The notes beneath the pieces are model-generated. The model was not told the DNA's origin, ran no database searches, and saw only the letters and a list, made by a program, of their open reading frames with translations. This document shows positions 23,636-33,108 of a stretch of DNA of 64,000 nucleotides, one piece after another. Position 1 is the stretch's first letter, and each line of letters opens with the position of its first letter. A program made the translations under genes and the position numbers. The DNA comes from a phage: NCBI GenBank assembly GCA_019897865.1, contig GCA_019897865.1_4532.1; one strand, 5' to 3'.

Positions 23636-24226
23636 ATGTATACCGAGAGAGACTTGCAACTCTTGTGGTGGGAAGTGATGCAGGAAATAAAAGAAGATTT
23701 TCCTGTTTACTACAACATGTTACGTGAAGCAGGATATAAAGCTTGCGTTAGAAACAAAGTGAATAACTCTTTCGGTTGGTGCAACTACCGAGATAAAATT
23801 GTTGTTGTAAATTGGCACTTGCATAAGAACTCTACAAGAGATATGATCGTGGATACAATGAAGCACGAAATTGCTCATGCTATTGATGGTTGTATGGGTA
23901 AGTTTAGTCGGCACGGTGCTCATTGGCAAAAACTGGCAGCAGAATTAGGGGCAAACCCTAAAGCTACTTCCAAAGAGCCGTTGAACCATGAATATAAATA
24001 TGTTCTTGTTTTGGTGGATAGGTTTGCGACAAGATGTGTTAGAGGGTATAATCGTAAACCTAATCGCATGTATCCAGGTAAGCAACCTAATATGTGGTTA
24101 AAATCAGATAAAGAAGGAACAGAAGGAAAATTATGGTTGTATAAATGGGACGATTGGGTTAAAGTAGCTAAAGAATACGGTGTTTCACCATATATAAGAG
24201 ATGCAGAAGAGGAGAATGAAGAATGA
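23636..24226 (+). CDS. SprT-like zinc metalloprotease-domain protein
   Basis: 196 aa; HExxH motif in MKHEIAHAIDG. Confidence 0.45.
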   Translation: MYTERDLQLLWWEVMQEIKEDFPVYYNMLREAGYKACVRNKVNNSFGWCNYRDKIVVVNWHLHKNSTRDMIVDTMKHEIAHAIDGCMGKFSRHGAHWQKLAAELGANPKATSKEPLNHEYKYVLVLVDRFATRCVRGYNRKPNRMYPGKQPNMWLKSDKEGTEGKLWLYKWDDWVKVAKEYGVSPYIRDAEEENEE

Positions 24227-25335
24227 CAAGTCCGTTTTTAAAAGCAGCTACTGGTGGTCAGAAGAAGTCTGAAATGAGTGTATTCACTGCAACAACAGAT
24301 GCAAGTAAATCTGTATTTGCTCCAACCGTGTTAGATGCCAGTCCTGTTTATGCACCAGCCGCACCGCAAGAAGTCCCAGTTTTGCCTTCTATGACACGAC
24401 AAGAGATCGAAGAGATCGGGGCAGAGGCAGGAACAACCTTGCGTTCCTTGAATGCCGAGGTATTAAAACATCAACGTAGTAATCAAGGCGATCAGATGAG
24501 TGAACGACTCACAGCTTTGATTAAACAGGCAAAACAACTTGATCCAAACTCTATTAAACAAAGCAAAGGTATTACTAAACTCATTAAAAAAGTTATGGGT
24601 ATGAAAGAAGACCTGTTTGGGGAGTTTGATAATGTTAATAACCGTATTGAAGAGTTGGTAAAGAACCTTCAAATGGATATTCGCAAAGAAGAAGATTCCT
24701 TGGTATATCTTGAAAAGCTACATCAAGCTATTGGACAATATGCTGCAAGTTTGAACCGAGATATGCAGCTTCTAACAGCAACCTATGAAAAAGAAGAACA
24801 AGCTTTGGCTGCTCTTCCAAAAGATGCGGTAGAACAGCGACAAGCGATCCGAGATACCTTGGATCTTCTGGAGATTCGTATTGCGGATTTAAAAGCATTG
24901 CGCCTACTGTGTGTCCAAATGGGACCACGTGTGCAAGGTATGCAAAAAGTTTCTGCAAGCTTAATGCGATCTGCGCGTAACATAGTAAATAATGTTATTC
25001 CTGCTTACTCTGCTAACTTCTCAATGTATATTGAGAGCTTACGTCAAATGAAAGCCGCAGAGACACAGAATAACGTTCTTGATGAATTTAACCTGGCAAT
25101 TAAACTGGGTAGCGATCTTGCCACACAGAATCAGATCGAAGCAGCAGCACTGGCTAACCGTCAAGTGTTGGATATTGAAACTCTGCGTCACGATCAGGAA
25201 AACTTGGTCAAAATGTTGGAAGAAACTAACCGCATCAATACGGAAGCCCGTGCTGCCCGTGTTGATTACATCAATGAAGTTCAATCTCTCGAAGATGGGA
25301 TGGTTGACGCTGTTAAGAAGGGGTTGGGTAAATGA
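24223..25335 (+). CDS. TelA-like (toxic anion resistance) helical protein
   Basis: 370 aa, Ala/Pro-rich N-terminus then long helical region; size and context fit TelA/KlaA family. Confidence 0.4.
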   Translation: MTSPFLKAATGGQKKSEMSVFTATTDASKSVFAPTVLDASPVYAPAAPQEVPVLPSMTRQEIEEIGAEAGTTLRSLNAEVLKHQRSNQGDQMSERLTALIKQAKQLDPNSIKQSKGITKLIKKVMGMKEDLFGEFDNVNNRIEELVKNLQMDIRKEEDSLVYLEKLHQAIGQYAASLNRDMQLLTATYEKEEQALAALPKDAVEQRQAIRDTLDLLEIRIADLKALRLLCVQMGPRVQGMQKVSASLMRSARNIVNNVIPAYSANFSMYIESLRQMKAAETQNNVLDEFNLAIKLGSDLATQNQIEAAALANRQVLDIETLRHDQENLVKMLEETNRINTEARAARVDYINEVQSLEDGMVDAVKKGLGK

Positions 25336-25898: not shown

Positions 25899-26461
25899 TG
25901 GGTTGTTTTAGCTTTTTGTGTAAGGAATCGGGCAAAGCTGCCCTTTCTACTTCTTTCGACGGATCACCTTGCTATCTCTTTCTTTTGAAGGATGGTGTTG
26001 TTATTGAAGAGATGTATGGCAACTATGATAGTTATGGTTGTGTTTTCTCTGGAAAGGAGGATGAAAATGGCGTTCGTGAACGGTTCGAATGGGCTATGGA
26101 TTGGGGTAAGGTTTGTGATTTAATGCATTCCTCGAATCCAAGGGACGGTATCGCTATGGTGCTGGAAGAGTATTTTACAGGTGAAATCCCTACAGAACAA
26201 TCTGACGGAGATCCTAACCAAGGTTGGGGTGATGGCGAAGAAGATCCAGATTGTTTTTTCAGCACAGAAAAGAATAAGTTTAAACGTGTTGACAACCCTT
26301 ATCACAAAGTGCATAATACTCTCATTGAAACAGAAGATGACAAGATGGAAATTGAAGAAGATGATCCTCTTGTAACACTTCCTATAAGTGAGTTACAAAA
26401 GATCACTAAGGAAGCTTACGATTTGGGCTTCAAAATTGGTAGAGGAGGTATGCGTGTTTAG
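25898..26461 (+). CDS. hypothetical acidic protein
   Basis: 187-aa ORF. Confidence 0.5.
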   Translation: MGCFSFLCKESGKAALSTSFDGSPCYLFLLKDGVVIEEMYGNYDSYGCVFSGKEDENGVRERFEWAMDWGKVCDLMHSSNPRDGIAMVLEEYFTGEIPTEQSDGDPNQGWGDGEEDPDCFFSTEKNKFKRVDNPYHKVHNTLIETEDDKMEIEEDDPLVTLPISELQKITKEAYDLGFKIGRGGMRV

Positions 26462-26732
26462 ATTCAATATTCAAGAAGAAAAGTGTCAGGATTTACCTAT
26501 TGCTTTCGAAGATCTTGGCATAGGGGACACATTCATGTATTATGATGCCTATGAAGACGCAGGGTTGGATACCTACCGTAACTTGGTGTTCATTAAAAAT
26601 TCCACAAACAGTGCGATCTGTATTAATGGATCACTAGCACAACGAGGCTATACTCATTGCATCCCACCAGATACAAATATGGTGGAAGTAGATTTAGAAG
26701 TTACCAATATTACACTTAAGAAGGAGAAATAA
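26454..26732 (+). CDS. small protein, paralog A of duplicated module
   Basis: GTG start 6 nt after AGGAGG; about 40 percent identical to 27754..28023 product (shared DLxxGDTFxY..A.E..GLD and EV.L.VT.ITLK). Confidence 0.5.
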   Translation: MFRFNIQEEKCQDLPIAFEDLGIGDTFMYYDAYEDAGLDTYRNLVFIKNSTNSAICINGSLAQRGYTHCIPPDTNMVEVDLEVTNITLKKEK

Positions 26733-26733
26733 T

Positions 26734-27528
26734 ATGTCCGAGAAAATCAGCCTGAAAAAACGTCAAGAAAACCTTGCTTTCTCTCTGAAAAAGAATAAGA
26801 ACCTGAACGAAGGTAAGATTGTTCTTCGTGTAGCATGTGCTCTAGATATTTCTGGTAGTATGCATGGTCTATATACTCGTGGGGTAGTGAGTGATTTTGT
26901 AGGTAAACTGCTTCCTTTTGGTATGCTGTTCGACGATAATGAACAAATTGACATGTGGGCCTTCAATACGAGTTCTCAAGAGCTTACTCCAGCAACAGCA
27001 GACGTTTACGATGACTACGTTGGTAAATGTATGCGTAATGTTCGTATCGGAGGTGGAACAAATTACGCCCCTGTAATGGCAGATATCTACGATGAGTATT
27101 TTGGCACTGTTACCAAATATGTTACCACTAAACAAGTGGTACAAGAGGAGGCTCCAAAGAAAGGCTTCTTTAATCGTCTGCTTGGTAAAACTGAAACAGT
27201 GTCTGTAGAGCGTGAAAAAGTTGTAGCTGTATCTGAACCAGGTGCTGACGTTACCCCTGGTGTTGTATTCTTCCAGACGGATGGTGAGAATGGTGATCCT
27301 AGTGCTGTTCGTCGTCTTATTGAAGAGAATAAGAATAAACCTATTTATTGGTTCATGGTTGGCGTTGGTAATGAGAAGTTTGGCTTCCTGAAAGAACTGG
27401 CAAATGCTTATGATAATGTTGGTTTTATTGGCATTAAAGATTTAGACTTGACAGATTCAGAGCTTTATGACAAACTCTTATCTGAAGAGTTCGGAGAGTG
27501 GGTTGTTAAAGTAGGTGCTAAAAAATGA
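26734..27528 (+). CDS. vWA-domain protein (TerF/TerY-like) with TerD-like N-terminal KISLKK motif
   Basis: 264 aa; MIDAS-like DISGSM; N-terminus MSEKISLKK mirrors TerD N-terminus. Confidence 0.55.
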   Translation: MSEKISLKKRQENLAFSLKKNKNLNEGKIVLRVACALDISGSMHGLYTRGVVSDFVGKLLPFGMLFDDNEQIDMWAFNTSSQELTPATADVYDDYVGKCMRNVRIGGGTNYAPVMADIYDEYFGTVTKYVTTKQVVQEEAPKKGFFNRLLGKTETVSVEREKVVAVSEPGADVTPGVVFFQTDGENGDPSAVRRLIEENKNKPIYWFMVGVGNEKFGFLKELANAYDNVGFIGIKDLDLTDSELYDKLLSEEFGEWVVKVGAKK

Positions 27529-27773
27529 TCGACGAGCTTGCCTCTCAAGTCATAGAAAATTATTGGCGCGAGAGAGAAGCTTTCATTATGCGCAGTCTCA
27601 AAGAGTATTTCATTGGGACTGTGCGAATGGAAGATATTGTAAGTAGAGTAGAGATTCATGTATGGCCTGATTATGAAGAATGGGTTGACAAAGAAAATGA
27701 AAATGCTATAATTCTTCGTATATACAAACCGGAGATAACATTAGGAGGAAGAAGTGTTAAACTTCGAAATTGA
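27525..27773 (+). CDS. hypothetical small protein
   Basis: 82-aa ORF. Confidence 0.4.
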   Translation: MIDELASQVIENYWREREAFIMRSLKEYFIGTVRMEDIVSRVEIHVWPDYEEWVDKENENAIILRIYKPEITLGGRSVKLRN

Positions 27774-28023
27774 TGAGCAAAAAGTAAATAAACGATGCCT
27801 TACCATTAAAGATTTGGATGTAGGAGATACTTTCGTCTATGAAAATGCATTTGACGAAAATGGTTTAGACCTTAGTGAAATCATTGTTTATTTAAAAGTA
27901 GATGATGGGGAAAATGATTATTCTGCTGTAGAACTAAACCATCATGCACAATTAGTATCAATCCAAAACACATCTAAGCTTTTGGAAGTAGAATTGACTG
28001 TAACTGGTATTACACTTAAATAA
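27754..28023 (+). CDS. small protein, paralog B of duplicated module
   Basis: GTG start after AGGAGG; paralog of 26454..26732. Confidence 0.5.
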   Translation: MLNFEIDEQKVNKRCLTIKDLDVGDTFVYENAFDENGLDLSEIIVYLKVDDGENDYSAVELNHHAQLVSIQNTSKLLEVELTVTGITLK

Positions 28024-28038
28024 TAGAGGAGACAAAAG

Positions 28039-28641
28039 ATGACTGATAAAATTTCCCTGAAAAAAGGCTCTAGCGAAAAAATTTCCCTGAAGAAAGTTGC
28101 TCCGGCTCTGAAAGAACTGCGCCTGGAATTCTCTTGGAAATCTGATTCTAAACTAGATCTGGATGTAAGTGCACTGGTTTGTCGTCATAATGCCGCTGGC
28201 AATCCTGAAATGCTGTCCGCACGTCATCTGGTTTGCTATGCTAATAAGTTTGATCCTGAACGTTCTACCTTCGCTGGTGACGATGTTCGTGATGGAACTG
28301 GCAGCATGGAGCAGATTGATATTACTCTGGCTAAAATCTCTCCTGATGCACAAGAGATTGCCTTTGTTCTGACTATTGATGATGATACAGGTCTGAAACG
28401 TTTTGGTCATGCTTCTGAAGGTATGCTTAAAATCTTCGACTCCGAGCGTAATGTGGAAATTCTGGATTTTGACTTCCTGGCTCCTGAAGTAGCTGGCAAC
28501 ACAATCTGCCACGTGGCTTCCCTGGTTCGTGAAGATGGAGAATGGAAGCTGAAAGCATATGGTGTAGGTAAAGCTGGTCTGGATATTTGCGATGTGGTGA
28601 TGGCCTTCGGTGGTAAAAAAGAATGGTATGAATGTCCATAA
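28039..28641 (+). CDS. terD: TerD-family protein
   Basis: 200 aa; ISLKKG...ISLKK, LDLDVSAL, GDDVRDGTG, GEWKLKAYGVGKAGL match the TerD fold signature. Confidence 0.8.
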   Translation: MTDKISLKKGSSEKISLKKVAPALKELRLEFSWKSDSKLDLDVSALVCRHNAAGNPEMLSARHLVCYANKFDPERSTFAGDDVRDGTGSMEQIDITLAKISPDAQEIAFVLTIDDDTGLKRFGHASEGMLKIFDSERNVEILDFDFLAPEVAGNTICHVASLVREDGEWKLKAYGVGKAGLDICDVVMAFGGKKEWYECP

Positions 28642-28659
28642 TAATTAACAAATGATTTT

Positions 28660-28679
28660 GAGGGGGAGAAATCCCCCTC
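28660..28679 (+). terminator. GC-rich hairpin after terD (weak U-tract)
   Basis: gaggggga gaaa tccccctc perfect 8-bp stem; only TT follows. Confidence 0.45.
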
Positions 28680-28708
28680 TTGCAATAAAGCCTCTATCGT
28701 GTTATACT
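28680..28708 (+). promoter_or_regulatory. sigma70-like promoter TTGCAA-N17-TGnTATACT
   Basis: -35 at 28680-28685; extended -10 TG at 28700-28701 and TATACT at 28703-28708. Confidence 0.55.
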
Positions 28709-28740
28709 AGAAGTTCGTTAACTTAAAAAGGAGGCAAAAT

Positions 28741-29262
28741 TTGCTGATAAAAAACTTTGTAACAGTTGCGTTACTATCCTTAACTGCTTTTACATTTACA
28801 CCTGTTGTGGCGAAAGCCGAAGCTGCAAACGTAAAAACCGCTAAAGTAGTTCACAAATGTACAAAGCAATATAATGATAAAATTCTATTAGCTTGTGCAA
28901 TTTACGCAGAAGGTCGCGGTCTGGGTAAAAAAGGAATGAATGCCGTTGGGAATGTGGTAATCAACAGAAGAAATGATGCCTACTTCCCTAACACAGTCAA
29001 GGGAGTCTTGTTCCAGAAAGGGCAATTCTCATATGCGAAAACTTTTAACGTGACAGAGAAAGATAAGTGGCAGGAAGCAAAAGCAATAGCGGAGCGTTTA
29101 CTTTATTTAGAGAAACATTTTCCTGAATTGCGGTCTGTTTTAGATGTTACTAAAGGTGCTCTATACTTCAAGAAACGGAATATAAGGACACACTGGGAGC
29201 GTGATATGCGTCTTGTTTATCGAGATAAAGTGCATGGTTTCTATCTACCAAAGGGGAGTTAA
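28741..29262 (+). CDS. SleB/CwlJ-like cell-wall hydrolase with signal peptide
   Basis: TTG start 6 nt after AAAGGAGG; signal peptide MLIKNFVTVALLSLTAFTFTPVVAKA; LLACAIYAEGRG...VGNVVINRR...GQF motifs. Confidence 0.6.
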   Translation: MLIKNFVTVALLSLTAFTFTPVVAKAEAANVKTAKVVHKCTKQYNDKILLACAIYAEGRGLGKKGMNAVGNVVINRRNDAYFPNTVKGVLFQKGQFSYAKTFNVTEKDKWQEAKAIAERLLYLEKHFPELRSVLDVTKGALYFKKRNIRTHWERDMRLVYRDKVHGFYLPKGS

Positions 29263-29263
29263 A

Positions 29264-29548
29264 ATGCAAGAAGATAATACTGTTGTTGTAGCAAGTTACC
29301 TGGTTGTCGGTCTTACCGAAGAGGACGTATACTACACCCGTAAACATTTGGAAGCATACGCTACTTTGTTTATGGAAGATGAAAAAGATGTAGATAAATA
29401 TAGCATTGATATGATCAACGACAGTATTTATCCTTGTATGGTTCTTAAAGTAGATGCTGTGCTGTGGGAGCGTTTTGCAAGGACTCATGATGCTGTAGAA
29501 TGCTCCGCAGTAATGTCTCAAAACAACATTTTAGGGGAGATTCACTGA
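29264..29548 (+). CDS. hypothetical protein
   Basis: Track ORF 29201..29548; ATG at 29264 follows AAGGGGAG. Confidence 0.45.
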   Translation: MQEDNTVVVASYLVVGLTEEDVYYTRKHLEAYATLFMEDEKDVDKYSIDMINDSIYPCMVLKVDAVLWERFARTHDAVECSAVMSQNNILGEIH

Positions 29549-29963: not shown

Positions 29964-30527
29964 ATGATTTATTATATTACTCCCTATCTGACAGGAAATA
30001 TCGGCAAGGCTATCAATGAAGCTATTGCCGTTCTTCCAGATGATAGTTGGGTGTGCTTAAGAGATACCGATACAATGTTCCTCCTACCTGATCAACCATC
30101 TATGCTTGAAGAGCTTGTTATGTCAAACCCGCCTTTTGATGTAATAGGTGCAACTTGTAACAGGTTAGGTAGTGGTTATCAGCTTTTCTCTAACCAAATT
30201 AACGATGATCCAGATATTCTAAACCATATAGAATATGCTAAGATTGCAAGAGAATATCATAAAGTGAGTGTTGAAGAAGTTCCTTTCGGAACACCTCTGG
30301 CAGGTTTCTTTTTGCTTTTTAGAAAATCATTGTGGAATGAAATTCCTTTCGAAGAAAAATCTATCCAATTCGACCTAATTTTCTCTCGCACTTTACATGA
30401 AAAAGGAAAGAGGTTAGGATTGATGCGGGGAATGTATCTGTTTCACATTTACAGATTAGGTCAAACAAATCCTCAACGGTCTATACATCATTTATTACAC
30501 TGTCACGATCACAGTAAAACTATCTAG
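29964..30527 (+). CDS. putative GT-A-fold glycosyltransferase
   Basis: 187 aa; N-terminal ITPY...N.G and acidic CLRDTDT segment. Confidence 0.35.
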   Translation: MIYYITPYLTGNIGKAINEAIAVLPDDSWVCLRDTDTMFLLPDQPSMLEELVMSNPPFDVIGATCNRLGSGYQLFSNQINDDPDILNHIEYAKIAREYHKVSVEEVPFGTPLAGFFLLFRKSLWNEIPFEEKSIQFDLIFSRTLHEKGKRLGLMRGMYLFHIYRLGQTNPQRSIHHLLHCHDHSKTI

Positions 30528-30535
30528 GAGAGAAA

Positions 30536-31219
30536 ATGGAAAATATTAAAATCGGAGTGGGTGTTATCACTGTAGGTGTCCGTCCACTTAAAGACTATCT
30601 TGTAACAGATCCACATGCAGATTTTCGAGTATTCAACGATCCAGATCGTAAAGGTGTAGCTTACGCCAGGAATGAACTTATGCACCAGTTTTATGAAGAA
30701 GGTTATGATTATTGGTTTATTTTTGACGACGATTGCTACCCAATCATGGAGGGATGGGAAACATATTTTGTAGATCAAGCTGTCTCTGGAGGATGGGATT
30801 TCTTTGGTATGCCGGAGTATTTCAAAGATAAAGTTGTTGGGAGTAAAGGAGAAGTTATTCTCTGGGAACTTGCAATGTGTCAATTTGCAATGTATTCTCG
30901 TGCCGTTGTTGAGAAGATGGGTTATTTCCGCCCTTACACTCACGGCTATGGTTTTGAAGATGCTGAATGGGTACACCGTTTGAAAGCTGCTGGTTTGAAT
31001 CAGGGTATTCAGGCAATACCTTGTCCACTTCGTATCATGGCTTATATCCACCCAGACGATGTTTTTGGAAACAATCCTATGCCTTTTGCTAATCTGACAA
31101 AAGAAGAGAAAGAAGCTGCTATTGGCATTAACTGGGAAGAATATAAAGCGTCTTTAGAAGATATTAAAAATGGGAAAATCCGAATTTCTTATGAGGAGGC
31201 ACTGGCACATGTCAAATAA
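30536..31219 (+). CDS. putative GT-A-fold glycosyltransferase
   Basis: 227 aa; FIFDDDCYP (DxD-like) and GYGFEDAEW motifs. Confidence 0.4.
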   Translation: MENIKIGVGVITVGVRPLKDYLVTDPHADFRVFNDPDRKGVAYARNELMHQFYEEGYDYWFIFDDDCYPIMEGWETYFVDQAVSGGWDFFGMPEYFKDKVVGSKGEVILWELAMCQFAMYSRAVVEKMGYFRPYTHGYGFEDAEWVHRLKAAGLNQGIQAIPCPLRIMAYIHPDDVFGNNPMPFANLTKEEKEAAIGINWEEYKASLEDIKNGKIRISYEEALAHVK

Positions 31220-32156
31220 AAAACGGACTAAACTGAAAATTGATGCAAAACCTCACAGTGGTTGTGATTATCATCGTATTGTTATACCATTTAACAACAA
31301 TAATTTTCAGCCTAAGAAAGATGTTGTCGTGTTTAACCGTATTCATTCTAAAGGGGCAGAATACGTTCTGTCCCTGAAACGTCAAGGTGTTAAGATTGTT
31401 GTAGATTTAGATGATTTCTACCAACTTAATCCAGAACATTATTTAGCAAGTTTATATGAGTCAAACACTCATGCTATTGTAGCTATGGTTAAGCTTGCCG
31501 ATGTGGTCATTGTGACTACGGAATATTTGGCATATAAGATCCGTCACTTAAATAGGAATGTTGTTGTGATCCGAAATGCACTTCCTTTTGATAGCGGACA
31601 ATTCACTTTGTCAAATGATCGTTCATCCGGTACCCCTGTTGTATGGGCTGGAGGTGCTAGTCACGAACCCGATTTACGACTAGTCTCTAACACTTTTGAT
31701 GATGAACTTCTTACTATTGCGGGGTATGAAGCTTCGCAGAGTATCACAGGGCAAGAGTGGATTAAGATCCGTAGAAATTTACCAAATGCCAAATATAAAG
31801 CTGCTGTAAAAGATTTAGATAATTACATGAGTGTTTACGAAAGTCATGCTATTGCTATAGCTCCTTTGGTAGATAATGATTTTAATAATTGTAAAAGTAA
31901 TCTCAAAATCCTTGAAGCTGGGGCAAAAGGTATTCCGATTGTTTGTTCTAAGGTATTACCTTATTTTAACCCTGTAGATGCTCGCGCTGTTGCTTATGCA
32001 GAGAATAAAGCAGAATGGCATTACGAAATTGTTAAACTTCTTCGCAATCCGAACTATCGGGAAGATCGTGGCTTGTTCTTAGCGGAACATGTTCGAACAC
32101 ATTATAATCTGGCAGATGCAAACGAATTGCGACGCCAGGTTATTGAAAGTTTGTAG
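31209..32156 (+). CDS. putative GT-B-fold glycosyltransferase (paralog 1)
   Basis: Track ORF 31170..32156; ATG at 31209 after GAGGAGG; KSNLKILEAGAKGIPIVCS motif. Confidence 0.4.
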   Translation: MSNKKRTKLKIDAKPHSGCDYHRIVIPFNNNNFQPKKDVVVFNRIHSKGAEYVLSLKRQGVKIVVDLDDFYQLNPEHYLASLYESNTHAIVAMVKLADVVIVTTEYLAYKIRHLNRNVVVIRNALPFDSGQFTLSNDRSSGTPVVWAGGASHEPDLRLVSNTFDDELLTIAGYEASQSITGQEWIKIRRNLPNAKYKAAVKDLDNYMSVYESHAIAIAPLVDNDFNNCKSNLKILEAGAKGIPIVCSKVLPYFNPVDARAVAYAENKAEWHYEIVKLLRNPNYREDRGLFLAEHVRTHYNLADANELRRQVIESL

Positions 32157-32163
32157 GTGAAGT

Positions 32164-33108
32164 ATGGGACAAATAATTCTTGACAATCGTAACGGAATCA
32201 ATTATAGTGTCTGCGATTTCCATAGGGTAGTGCTGCCTTACTCAAGGCAGTTCTCTTCACAACCTAAACACAACGTTTTCGTTTTTAACGGAGTGCCAAC
32301 AAAAGGTAAAGAGGGCTTTTTAGCCCTTAAAAACCTAGGCTTTAAAATGGTTATGGATTTGGATGACTCTTTAGTTATTCCAAAAGGACACATGTTAGAA
32401 GGTATTTTTGAATCAGGTATTCGTGAACATTTAAAATGGTTTTTAGAGCACAGTGATCTTGTTACAACTACGACACCTGCCTTGCAAGTTGAACTTTCAC
32501 AATACAATGATAATGTGCACATAATCCCTAATGGACTTCCTTACGATGAAGGTCAATTTGTGTTGACCCGTGACCGCTACTCCAAAACTCCATTAGTCTG
32601 GGCTGGAAGTGAAACACATAAACAAGATTTGGCTATCTTGCCCGATTTTGGTAAAGATCTTACAATATGTGGTTTTCGTAGGGATTCTGAAGTTTTAAGT
32701 AGTCGTGAATGGTCTGTAATTAGAGAAAATGTAGCACCAACTTGTGTTTATGAAGGTGTAAGACCATATGCCAACTACATGGAATCTTACGATGGTCATC
32801 AAATCAGTCTTGCACCATTGATCGATAACGTGTTTAATAATGCAAAAAGCAATCTTAAAATTCTTGAGGCAGGTGCTAAGGGTTTACCTTTAATCTGCTC
32901 TCCTCGTGAGAATTATCATACACAAGAGTTTAAAGATTTGTTATTCTTTGCTGAAACACCTTCCGAGTGGAAAGATATTACGGAATACTTATTAAGTGCT
33001 CCCGATGTTTGCATGGAGAAAGGATTAGCATTAGCTAAGTATGTCAGGACTCATTATCACATTGATGTGTTGAATGAGCGTCGTAGACTTTTATTTGAGG
33101 AGCTATAA
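32164..33108 (+). CDS. putative GT-B-fold glycosyltransferase (paralog 2)
   Basis: 314 aa; shares CD(F/Y)HR(V/I)V(L/I)P and NLKILEAGAKG(L/I)P motifs with 31209..32156. Confidence 0.4.
   Translation: MGQIILDNRNGINYSVCDFHRVVLPYSRQFSSQPKHNVFVFNGVPTKGKEGFLALKNLGFKMVMDLDDSLVIPKGHMLEGIFESGIREHLKWFLEHSDLVTTTTPALQVELSQYNDNVHIIPNGLPYDEGQFVLTRDRYSKTPLVWAGSETHKQDLAILPDFGKDLTICGFRRDSEVLSSREWSVIRENVAPTCVYEGVRPYANYMESYDGHQISLAPLIDNVFNNAKSNLKILEAGAKGLPLICSPRENYHTQEFKDLLFFAETPSEWKDITEYLLSAPDVCMEKGLALAKYVRTHYHIDVLNERRRLLFEEL

Follow-up and report, generated by a model that had tools for sequence, protein, structure and literature searches.

The SleB/CwlJ-type hydrolase gene on this 64,000-nucleotide stretch of phage DNA (the window) is read here, with a probability of about 0.5, as encoding an accessory muralytic enzyme that would be made in low dose from the replication block, exported by the Sec pathway, and active beside a main lysis machinery of GH24 lysozyme and spanins. 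Judging from sequence, the hydrolase is unlikely to be the main endolysin or a virion protein. The gene itself is a real, previously annotated gene of a phAPEC8-like Escherichia coli phage. The window is ~99.7% identical to known Phapecoctavirus genomes, whose host is E. coli, and the protein corresponds to phAPEC8 gp067 (YP_007348567) and its Phapecoctavirus orthologues, with 98-99% protein identity and the same neighbours. Near-identical phages label it "(putative) cell wall hydrolase SleB" or "endolysin", the latter being the RefSeq and PHROG term, and a PF07486 protein has been entered as the second "lytic protein" of a Phapecoctavirus, beside a PF00959 lysozyme (PMC10793346). All sequence features that an earlier note on this DNA had named for 28660-29262 were found at their coordinates. 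The gene and its immediate neighbours are as follows.

28039 to 28641, plus strand: TerD-domain gene (Pfam TerD, E=3.2e-28), upstream context outside the hydrolase unit
28741 to 29262, plus strand: hydrolase open reading frame, 173 aa, TTG start, from the sequence and the list of open reading frames
29264 to 29548, plus strand: 94-aa gene of the phAPEC8 gp068 type, beginning 1 nt past the hydrolase stop

The hydrolase gene sits in a replication and nucleotide-metabolism block, and the structural genes form a separate block of the genome. Besides the upstream TerD gene, the neighbourhood holds small genes of unknown function and, downstream, four glycosyltransferase genes; scanning this set of genes with PADLOC returned nothing meaningful. 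The downstream 94-aa protein belongs to PHROG 16257 (unknown function), has no Pfam match and carries no export signal, and its gene is probably co-transcribed with that of the hydrolase.

In order to place the protein in a family, profile, structure and motif comparisons were combined; the protein features they concern are listed here.

28741 to 28818, plus strand: predicted Sec signal peptide, residues 1-26, from its n/h/c layout and conservation
28819 to 29259, plus strand: mature Hydrolase_2 (SleB/CwlJ-type) catalytic domain, ~17 kDa, pI 9.9
28858 to 28896, plus strand: C40 and C52 codons, the protein's only cysteines, nearly invariant
28909 to 28911, plus strand: codon of E57, the putative catalytic glutamate, within Y-A-E-G-R-G (family motif Y/F-x-E-x-R-G), aligned to YGESRG of SleB 4F55/4FET

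The SleB/CwlJ-family assignment of the earlier note is borne out by the Pfam match, by a SleB fold in the model and by an intact motif glutamate. Pfam Hydrolase_2 (PF07486) matched residues 62-168 at E=2e-17, scoring 64.1 bits where the gathering threshold is 27. This was the only Pfam match, and only ~10 residues lie between the signal peptide and the catalytic domain. An AlphaFold2 model from 117 sequences reached a pLDDT of 85, with a folded domain spanning approximately residues 35-173; it replaced an earlier run on 21 close homologues (pLDDT 59), which was discarded. Foldseek comparison of the model with the PDB returned only the SleB catalytic domains 4F55 and 4FET (probability 1.00, target-normalised TM 0.69-0.74), and SleB catalytic domains were likewise the only matches in a PDB sequence search.

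E57, V72, N75 and R76 were invariant in 117 diverse homologues, and by motif position we take E57 to be the putative counterpart of the SleB catalytic glutamate. The hydrolase is read as most likely a lytic transglycosylase with E57 as its putative catalytic acid. PMC11148199, citing Li et al. 2012, describes SleB as having a catalytic glutamate. The C40 and C52 columns were at least 90% conserved in the homologue alignment, with the same C...C spacing in PVP-SE1 gp243, and the two residues may form a periplasmic disulfide. Bacillus SleB, a germination-specific lytic transglycosylase, shares the fold and the glutamate motif with the phage protein; the domain identity is only 26%, and the phage hydrolase, unlike SleB, has neither an N-terminal peptidoglycan-binding domain nor a spore context. 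Assignment to SleB in the strict sense was rejected on the lack of that N-terminal domain and on the NCBIfam model for the spore cortex-lytic enzyme (TIGR02869), on which the protein scored 52.5 bits where 236.5 are required, with a match to profile positions 79-159 of 201 only. SleB requires muramic-delta-lactam, which E. coli peptidoglycan lacks, and E. coli has no cortex; activity of the hydrolase on the host wall is therefore an assumption.

Export is the second element of the preferred reading. The earlier note's Sec signal peptide is supported, at the level of prediction, by an n/h/c layout (n-region MLIK, h-region NFVTVALLSLTAFTFT, c-region PVVAKA), a proline at -6, an A-x-A site and a conserved (-3,-1) rule. 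Cleavage is predicted after A26, between FTPVVAKA and EA, with an alternative after A24. P21, the residue at -6, was invariant, and small residues at -1 and -3 were kept in 26 diverged orthologues despite drift of the c-region. In the AlphaFold model the N-terminal signal segment had a pLDDT below 50. Most of the 117 family members have an N-terminal signal or anchor. Signal peptides occur on the Vequintavirinae and T5-like homologues, and the JG004 homologue bears an N-terminal hydrophobic anchor instead. A lipoprotein reading was rejected, there being no lipobox and the first cysteine being residue 40. For near-identical E. coli O177 phages with the same 173-aa "endolysin", SignalP-6 and Phobius were reported to detect no signal peptides (PMC10698182). 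That report is unreliable on the same protein elsewhere, for example in giving 99% identity to the lambda and T4 lysozymes.

Expression of the gene would be governed by a compact upstream region, the parts of which are given below.

28660 to 28679, plus strand: GC-rich hairpin with an 8-bp stem (GAGGGGGA/TCCCCCTC) and a GAAA loop, directly 3' of the TerD gene
28680 to 28708, plus strand: sigma70-type promoter with an extended -10, from motif scan and conservation
28727 to 28734, plus strand: Shine-Dalgarno sequence AAAGGAGG, with 6 nt separating GGAGG from the start codon and AGGAGG kept in relatives
28741 to 28743, plus strand: TTG start codon, a weak initiator, the first start codon past the in-frame stop

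The hairpin that the earlier note had placed after terD is present right behind the TerD gene; its minimum free energy is -17.2 kcal/mol, and comparison with shuffled sequences gave z = -2.8. Each of the 14 orthologous loci that were examined has a stable hairpin at the corresponding position, of -11 to -19 kcal/mol and with a differing stem sequence. The terminator scan did not call the hairpin of this phage because it has no T-run; though without a U-tail here, it probably terminates or weakens transcription coming from the TerD gene upstream.

The promoter consists of TTGCAA (-35, 28680-28685), a 17-nt spacer, TG at 28700-28701 and TATACT (-10, 28703-28708), which places the predicted transcription start near 28715. 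The TG extension was found at 2 of 51 scan sites (14 kb, both strands), this promoter being one of the two, and by a rough estimate ~0.006 such sites would be expected by chance in the ~70-nt slot (a shuffle expectation of 39.4 sites per 28 kb, multiplied by roughly 1/16 for TG). Across nine aligned relatives the TTGC of the -35 and the TG.TA.A.T of the -10 were invariant columns while the spacer drifts, and hairpin, promoter, Shine-Dalgarno sequence and TTG start were all kept down to 52% protein identity. A dedicated promoter motif, as the earlier note had it (TTGCAA-N17-TGnTATACT), is present and conserved; its description as strong and near-consensus was an overstatement, since the scan score is 9/12, with the TG, and the -35 hexamer alone scores 4/6. 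No further copies of the motif were found in the window at up to 2 mismatches, and the hydrolase promoter is therefore not one of a repeated phage-specific class. It is also absent from the MEME/PHIRE promoter sets of the phAPEC8 authors.

The TTG start behind a strong Shine-Dalgarno sequence, 6 nt past GGAGG, was likewise seen in the sequence. M66, the first in-frame ATG, is not the start because it comes after catalytic E57, and the TTG is an invariant column in the aligned relatives. Orthologues from four Vequintavirinae genera likewise begin with TTG or GTG, and a terminator comes right before these starts. In some records, SD2 and BIS47 among them, a later start is annotated, by which the signal peptide is lost. 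Taken together, the dedicated promoter, the hairpin and the weak TTG suggest that the enzyme would be made in low dose.

The lysis genes proper were located through phAPEC8, as the earlier note had proposed to do in a complete genome. The GH24 lysozyme and Rz/Rz1-type spanins of phAPEC8 lie ~50-77 kb from the hydrolase gene, outside the window. The lysozyme, gp172 (Phage_lysozyme, GH24), has no export signal and is encoded ~77 kb away; it is a 166-aa stand-alone, T4-E-like protein whose gene is outside the structural block. The i- and o-spanins, gp121 and gp120, adjoin the terminase gene. Searches of the 64-kb window gave no significant homologue of the GH24 lysozyme, gp171, the spanins or a holin, which extends to the whole window the earlier observation that no holin or spanin is adjacent. 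Features of a canonical lysis-cassette endolysin are lacking: there is no clustered holin or spanin, and the protein has an N-terminal signal where cytoplasmic accumulation would be expected. The authors of the rV5 genome named the GH24 homologue Gp89 as the "obvious lysin". Given a separate GH24 lysozyme and spanins, the hydrolase would be no more than an additional lysin in an accessory part. Of the "secreted endolysin" that the earlier note had entertained, the secretion is consistent with the export signal; a role as principal endolysin is improbable in view of the cytoplasmic GH24 lysozyme and spanin pair encoded elsewhere.

To gain a broader view, the gene was compared across phages. The exported wall hydrolase occurs in 1089 phage records of the searched collection, and in the phages examined its gene is always in early or replication regions and never in a lysis cassette. 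In rV5, AlexBoehm, Mydo and BIS47, which are all the Vequintavirinae loci with an identifiable downstream gene, it is immediately upstream of rIIA; one small open reading frame intervenes in Mydo, and the two genes overlap in AlexBoehm. No match to rIIA was found in the window or in phAPEC8, and in the Stephanstirmvirinae, which are without rIIA, the hydrolase gene follows a TelA/vWA-TerF/TerD cluster. The homologues rV5 gp2, PVP-SE1 gp243, T5-like sleB and JG004 gp029 (Pakpunavirus) are 33-39% identical to the hydrolase and share with it a single domain, an N-terminal export signal or anchor, and a genomic setting among early or replication genes, at a distance from the lysis genes. A GC hairpin precedes the Vequintavirinae and Pakpunavirus genes, the T5-like gene being the exception. 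In those two groups the hairpin ends 12-19 nt 5' of the start, leaving no room for a dedicated promoter. The T5-like and Pakpunavirus genes start with ATG, unlike the TTG found here.

Two known systems offer partial parallels. The Kayvirus Tgl, a second lysin with a signal peptide, owes its transcription to host RNA polymerase and accompanies the late endolysin LysK (PMC7150955). It resembles the present case as a second exported muralytic enzyme of a large virulent myovirus with a coexisting major endolysin, and the sequence-level marks of such an enzyme are found here as a predicted cleavable signal on a muralytic domain and a separate promoter motif for host RNA polymerase. It differs in its IsaA/SceD-type transglycosylase fold, its Gram-positive host and its location, tgl being only a few genes from lysK, whereas the lysozyme gene here is ~77 kb away. 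Acting in the periplasm, the type VI secretion effector T6EC3 makes E. coli cells round up and burst, and exchange of its glutamate for glutamine abolishes the toxicity (PMC11148199), so that a SleB fold is able to attack the E. coli wall. A SleB-fold domain is common to both proteins, as would be action in the E. coli periplasm and dependence on a structurally equivalent glutamate; what sets T6EC3 apart is its delivery by type VI secretion as a toxin between bacteria, together with an immunity protein in the periplasm. No inhibitor or immunity-like partner was found for the hydrolase. The 94-aa open reading frame was considered for that part and set aside, being without an export signal and not conserved beside the Vequintavirinae orthologues.

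Under the preferred reading of an exported accessory lysin, host sigma70 RNA polymerase would transcribe the gene from its extended -10 promoter, with the hairpin insulating it from the upstream TerD transcript, and translation would begin at the conserved weak TTG. The Sec pathway would export the precursor and signal peptidase I would cut after A26, releasing a basic protein of ~17 kDa, possibly with a C40-C52 disulfide bond, into the periplasm. There, as infection proceeds, the enzyme may nick or loosen the sacculus, and at lysis it may contribute to the breakdown of the wall. The main lysis would fall to the GH24 lysozyme of the cytoplasm and to the Rz/Rz1-type spanins, whose genes lie in other parts of the genome. 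From the position of the gene alone, we infer early or middle timing. As a separate point, a muralytic enzyme that is freely soluble in the periplasm and produced ahead of lysis would have to be kept in check.

Several other readings of the protein were weighed. An uncleaved N-terminus could keep the enzyme inactive and bound to the inner membrane up to the moment of depolarisation by a pinholin, as in SAR (signal-anchor-release) endolysins, and whether the segment is a signal peptide or a SAR domain was judged here by sequence, the distinction having been set as a check by the earlier note. The uncharged N-terminal stretch comprises 19 residues with a mean Kyte-Doolittle value of 1.94; its 42% Ala/Ser/Thr is SAR-like, the segment is unusually well conserved among closer orthologues, the anchor of the JG004 homologue seems to stay uncleaved, and signal predictions in Gram-negative phage lysins are often taken as SAR domains (PMC8223927). 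The stretch has no glycine, however, its h-region runs for only ~15 residues ahead of the invariant helix-breaking proline, A-x-A-type sites are conserved despite sequence drift, the N-terminus does not pack on the domain in the model, and no pinholin gene is nearby. These features favour a cleaved signal, and a SAR endolysin is considered improbable. There is similarly little likelihood that the hydrolase is the principal endolysin, delivered by Sec, with the GH24 lysozyme in another role. The RefSeq and PHROG label would agree with this, as would the best PHROG match of the phAPEC8 GH24 protein, a baseplate-hub/tail-lysozyme family; against it, that protein is stand-alone, T4-E-like and encoded outside the structural block, its rV5 homologue was named as lysin, and the low-expression design and early-block position of the hydrolase are atypical of a principal endolysin. 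A virion-associated wall hydrolase acting at DNA entry, another option of the earlier note, is very improbable. Agrobacterium and Rhizobium phages do encode proteins of more than 1000 aa with an internal Hydrolase_2 domain, and these were taken by size as tail or virion proteins, but the present protein has only 173 aa and comes from a stand-alone gene in the replication block, and its Sec signal is hard to square with cytoplasmic virion assembly. Furthermore, rV5 gp2 was absent from 19 virion proteins identified by mass spectrometry, and PA5oct gp447 was absent from virion mass spectrometry.

A role outside lysis is a possible though doubtful alternative, in which the exported transglycosylase would be an envelope-remodelling or auxiliary metabolic factor altering the sacculus early or mid-infection. 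It could serve peptidoglycan turnover and precursor release, envelope stress, a superinfection block or the tuning of lysis timing, alongside membrane-integrity modules. The early or replication setting outside any lysis cassette fits such a role, as do the rIIA neighbour in Vequintavirinae, the TelA/vWA-TerF/TerD neighbour in Stephanstirmvirinae, and a low-expression design (TTG, upstream hairpin) suited to a housekeeping-type activity. The PAK_P3 authors proposed their cell-wall hydrolase gp151, a possible counterpart of the present protein, as an auxiliary metabolic gene accounting for an accumulation of cell-wall precursors, and a Gram-negative SleB homologue of Zymomonas works in peptidoglycan remodelling and stress tolerance. 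This is guilt by association, however: the neighbour modules differ among subfamilies, no specific mechanism follows from the sequence, and a high pI with a single catalytic domain is typical of Gram-negative endolysins (PMC8223927). It is conceivable, if rather unlikely, that the protein is a dose-limited factor of early or middle envelope management and not a lysis enzyme, working with rIIA in Vequintavirinae or with TelA/vWA-TerF/TerD in Stephanstirmvirinae. Possible effects would be sacculus loosening or anhydromuropeptide release, bearing on lysis timing, countering of envelope-triggered abortive infection, or superinfection exclusion. If so, the weak start and upstream terminator would amount to dosage control that keeps the enzyme sub-lytic.

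The gene and its label were known already; the conserved TTG/GTG starts, the regulatory layout and the rIIA adjacency are new details, and the annotations and papers examined for the phAPEC8-type gene describe neither the signal peptide nor the conserved TTG, the promoter or the hairpin. The present finding is a sound, ordinary annotation with a few regulatory details. Where an annotated start passes over the TTG or GTG codon, the signal peptide stays hidden, so that those cloning the gene for enzybiotic use may express the precursor or a truncated form. More broadly, a second wall hydrolase of this exported kind, encoded at a distance from the lysis genes, is found in many large virulent phages that infect Gram-negative bacteria, and the database default for it is "endolysin". 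If the hydrolase is an accessory lysin, this would bear on the timing and robustness of lysis in rV5-, phi92- and T5-like therapeutic phages. If a pre-lysis envelope role were true, it would represent a new class of phage-host envelope manipulation.

The open reading frame that the earlier note had described as a SleB-like hydrolase gene, translated from TTG behind GGAGG, proved real and accurately described. No start other than TTG is workable, because the first in-frame ATG (M66) falls past the catalytic motif. The gap between the TerD gene and the hydrolase gene is 99 nt and contains a hairpin and a promoter.

Features of the hydrolase region and the Ter-type genes upstream of it (window coordinates)
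23636-24226, + strand, SprT-like metallopeptidase (Pfam)
24223-25335, + strand, TelA (Pfam)
26734-27528, + strand, vWA-TerF-like protein (Pfam)
28039-28641, + strand, TerD gene, upstream neighbour of the hydrolase (Pfam TerD, E=3e-28)
28660-28679, + strand, hairpin, 8-bp GC stem and GAAA loop (MFE -17.2 kcal/mol, z = -2.8)
28680-28708, + strand, promoter TTGCAA-N17-TGtTATACT, directly abutting the hairpin (consensus scan 9/12)
28730-28734, + strand, GGAGG (Shine-Dalgarno), 6 nt 5' of TTG
28741..29262, + strand, hydrolase, 173 codons, TTG start (ORF call)

The hydrolase matched Pfam Hydrolase_2 (64 bits against a cut-off of 27) and PHROG 938, and its only PDB sequence matches were the SleB catalytic domains 4F55 and 4FET, which align through the motif YGESRG (YAEGRG in the hydrolase). 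Built on 21 close homologues, a first AlphaFold model was of poor quality (pLDDT 59). The homologue set was widened by profile search to a 117-sequence alignment, in which E57, the putative catalytic glutamate, V72, N75, and R76 were invariant; a second model had a mean pLDDT of 85, with values >90 across most of the domain. Within the PDB this model matched SleB catalytic domains only (probability 1.00, target-normalised TM 0.69-0.74; next match E > 2), and among predicted viral structures it matched many phage 'SleB' proteins, both stand-alone and as domains within proteins of >1000 aa. The Hydrolase_2 score and the model uphold the proposed SleB/CwlJ-family assignment. Orthology to SleB itself was rejected, the NCBIfam equivalog score (52.5 bits) falling below the 236.5-bit cut-off. 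Unlike Bacillus SleB, the phage hydrolase has no peptidoglycan-binding domain detectable by Pfam scan. The predicted mature enzyme is ~17 kDa with a pI of 9.9, and C40 and C52, nearly invariant in the orthologue alignment, could form a periplasmic disulfide.

Over the window region, identity is 99.7% with Escherichia phage vB_EcoM-Ro121c4YLVW and 98-99.6% with dozens of genomes from Phapecoctavirus (phAPEC8-like phages of the Stephanstirmvirinae). The window corresponds to ~78.5-142.9 kb of phAPEC8, reversed, where the hydrolase gene is gp067, which GenBank records label 'putative cell wall hydrolase (SleB)' and RefSeq 'endolysin'. A genome announcement credits a Phapecoctavirus with two lytic proteins, one carrying a PF00959 domain and the other PF07486 (PMC10793346). 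The hydrolase gene had thus been annotated before, in a genus whose phages are well sampled; added here are evolutionary support for a signal-peptidase site, a conserved non-ATG start and upstream hairpin, rIIA and Ter synteny, and the demonstration of canonical lysis genes elsewhere.

The hydrolase N-terminus reads MLIK-NFVTVALLSLTAFTFT-PVVAKA/EAAN (slash, predicted cleavage). The n-region is basic and is followed by a core of ~15 residues without charge; Pro at -6 would break the helix, and positions -3 and -1 are both Ala. Its end resembles the E. coli PhoA signal (…LFTPVTKA/R). Among 26 orthologues (52-98% identity) the c-region drifts (AKA, AQA, GIA, ATA, SEA, VDA, VEA, and others) while the Pro and small -1/-3 residues are kept, the pattern expected for a signal-peptidase I site. 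This predicted layout and its conservation support the Sec signal peptide claimed earlier. Classical signal peptides are also present in homologues of ~35% identity from rV5-like, PVP-SE1-like, Mydovirus, and Avunavirus phages and T5-like BF23, whereas the Pakpunavirus JG004 homologue carries an N-terminal hydrophobic anchor instead. Several database records of the family have a later annotated start and lose the signal, the non-ATG start often being missed: in SD2 (L005 3001-3510) the annotated start is V23 (GTG), and in BIS47 (L030 1501-2028) the annotation is 48 codons short, both cutting off the signal peptide. Such downstream starts may account for published claims that these phages have no signal-peptide proteins. 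One paper on near-identical phages reports that no signal peptides were detected (PMC10698182); its other statements on this hydrolase are considered unreliable.

The hairpin after terD is present as reported, as is the promoter, although 'near-consensus' and 'strong' are unjustified because its -35 hexamer scores 4/6. Otherwise the earlier reading of family, export, and promoter was largely right. The promoter is one of two TG-extended sites among 51 matches in a 14-kb consensus scan; motif search found no further copies in the window, and the site is missing from the phAPEC8 authors' promoter predictions. Far nearer consensus is a perfect sigma70 promoter with extended -10 (TTGACA-16-TG-TATAAT, 12/12) at 27685-27712 (+), inside ORF 27525-27773. 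With small ORF 27754-28023 and then the TerD gene just downstream of it, this promoter probably drives the TerD unit ending at the 28660 hairpin.

Sixteen Stephanstirmvirinae-type loci share the order stop codon, GC hairpin, TTGC.. -35, 17 nt, TGnTAnAAT, AGGAGG, and TTG. Across nine aligned sequences the only columns without variation are -35 TT.C, TG.TA.A.T, the Shine-Dalgarno, and TTG; the spacer varies, and hairpin stems change yet stay paired (-14 to -19 kcal/mol). In Justusliebigvirus SD2 (L005 1644-2907) a 200-aa protein with no Pfam match directly precedes the hydrolase and TerD lies one gene further up, so the position after the terD hairpin holds for Phapecoctavirus and not the whole subfamily, while hairpin and promoter are kept. 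A hairpin, with a T-rich tail in most, likewise lies 5' of the gene in Vequintavirinae and Pakpunavirus, ending only 12-19 nt from the start codon (AlexBoehm, 24-2-1, Mydo, and PVP-SE1 among them); a Shine-Dalgarno fits there but a promoter does not, in contrast to the Stephanstirmvirinae-type loci. Vequintavirinae starts are also non-ATG (GTG in AlexBoehm; TTG in 24-2-1, Mydo, and PVP-SE1). That both subfamilies keep a weak start and transcriptional insulation points to possible selection for low hydrolase expression.

The Ter-type genes form a 'tellurite-resistance-type' set in a virulent phage (23636-28641, +); a PADLOC scan of TelA, the vWA-TerF-like protein, and TerD gave no match to defence models. 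Two small ORFs, 26388-26732 and 27754-28023, are paralogous (31% identity, E=2e-13), each preceding a Ter-family protein with a shared opening peptide (MSEKISLKK… in vWA-TerF-like, MTDKISLKK… in TerD), and 26388-27528 and 27754-28641 (+) appear to be a duplicated two-gene module. Four successive glycosyltransferase genes lie 3' of the hydrolase (29964-33108, +), the last two (31170-32156 and 32164-33108) being paralogues with 41% identity. The second of the four (30536-31219) weakly matches, below threshold, TET-associated glycosyltransferase (PF20691) and the PHROG for beta-glucosyl-HMC-alpha-glucosyltransferase, a possible hint of DNA or surface-glycan modification.

The earlier note had seen no holin or spanin beside the hydrolase, and the lysis genes of phAPEC8 were located elsewhere in its genome: gp172, a 166-aa Phage_lysozyme (Pfam E=9e-11) without a hydrophobic N-terminus, and, just upstream of the terminase gene, i-spanin gp121 and o-spanin gp120 (PHROGs 4297 and 1267), the latter with a lipobox-like MTGC and both included in a spanin survey. 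None of the three has a homologue in the window. The rV5 authors regarded Gp89, a GH24 protein, as the 'obvious lysin', with gp2 labelled simply 'cell wall hydrolase'. Gp2 is not among 19 virion proteins by MudPIT, its mass of 19052 Da is absent from the mass-spectrometry file, and PA5oct gp447 was not detected by virion mass spectrometry. Together with the predicted signal peptide and location in the replication block, these absences make the suggested virion association unlikely. The main rival to the favored reading, a non-lysis envelope role, is the less probable of the two, and readings as a SAR endolysin or principal endolysin are less likely still. The envelope role draws on an AMG proposal for PAK_P3 gp151, on a conserved location beside rIIA in Vequintavirinae, and, in Stephanstirmvirinae, where rIIA is lacking (no homologue in the window or phAPEC8), on the gene's place behind the TelA/vWA-TerF/TerD cluster. 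In AlexBoehm (L027 1474-1974; 4-nt overlap), Mydo (L029 1495-2025; one small ORF between), BIS47 (L030), and rV5 (gp2/gp1) the SleB-like gene is followed directly by rIIA ('membrane integrity protector').

At even odds (about 0.5), we favor a Sec-exported, low-output accessory wall enzyme beside the GH24 lysozyme and spanins. A SleB-fold T6SS effector in the periplasm makes E. coli round and burst, an effect abolished by mutating the equivalent Glu (PMC11148199), and in Gram-negative Zymomonas a SleB homologue influences both stress tolerance and the cross-linking of peptidoglycan; activity of the hydrolase on ordinary peptidoglycan is therefore plausible by analogy. The closest precedent in logic comes from Kayvirus, where Tgl, a lysin with a signal peptide, is transcribed by host polymerase and coexists with late LysK (PMC7150955). 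Host RNA polymerase would transcribe the hydrolase from its own extended -10 promoter in the early or middle phase, with the weak TTG start capping output. The precursor would be exported by Sec and cut by signal peptidase I, and the basic 17-kDa enzyme may nick the sacculus at a low level, contributing to wall destruction at lysis alongside the holin-released GH24 lysozyme and spanins.
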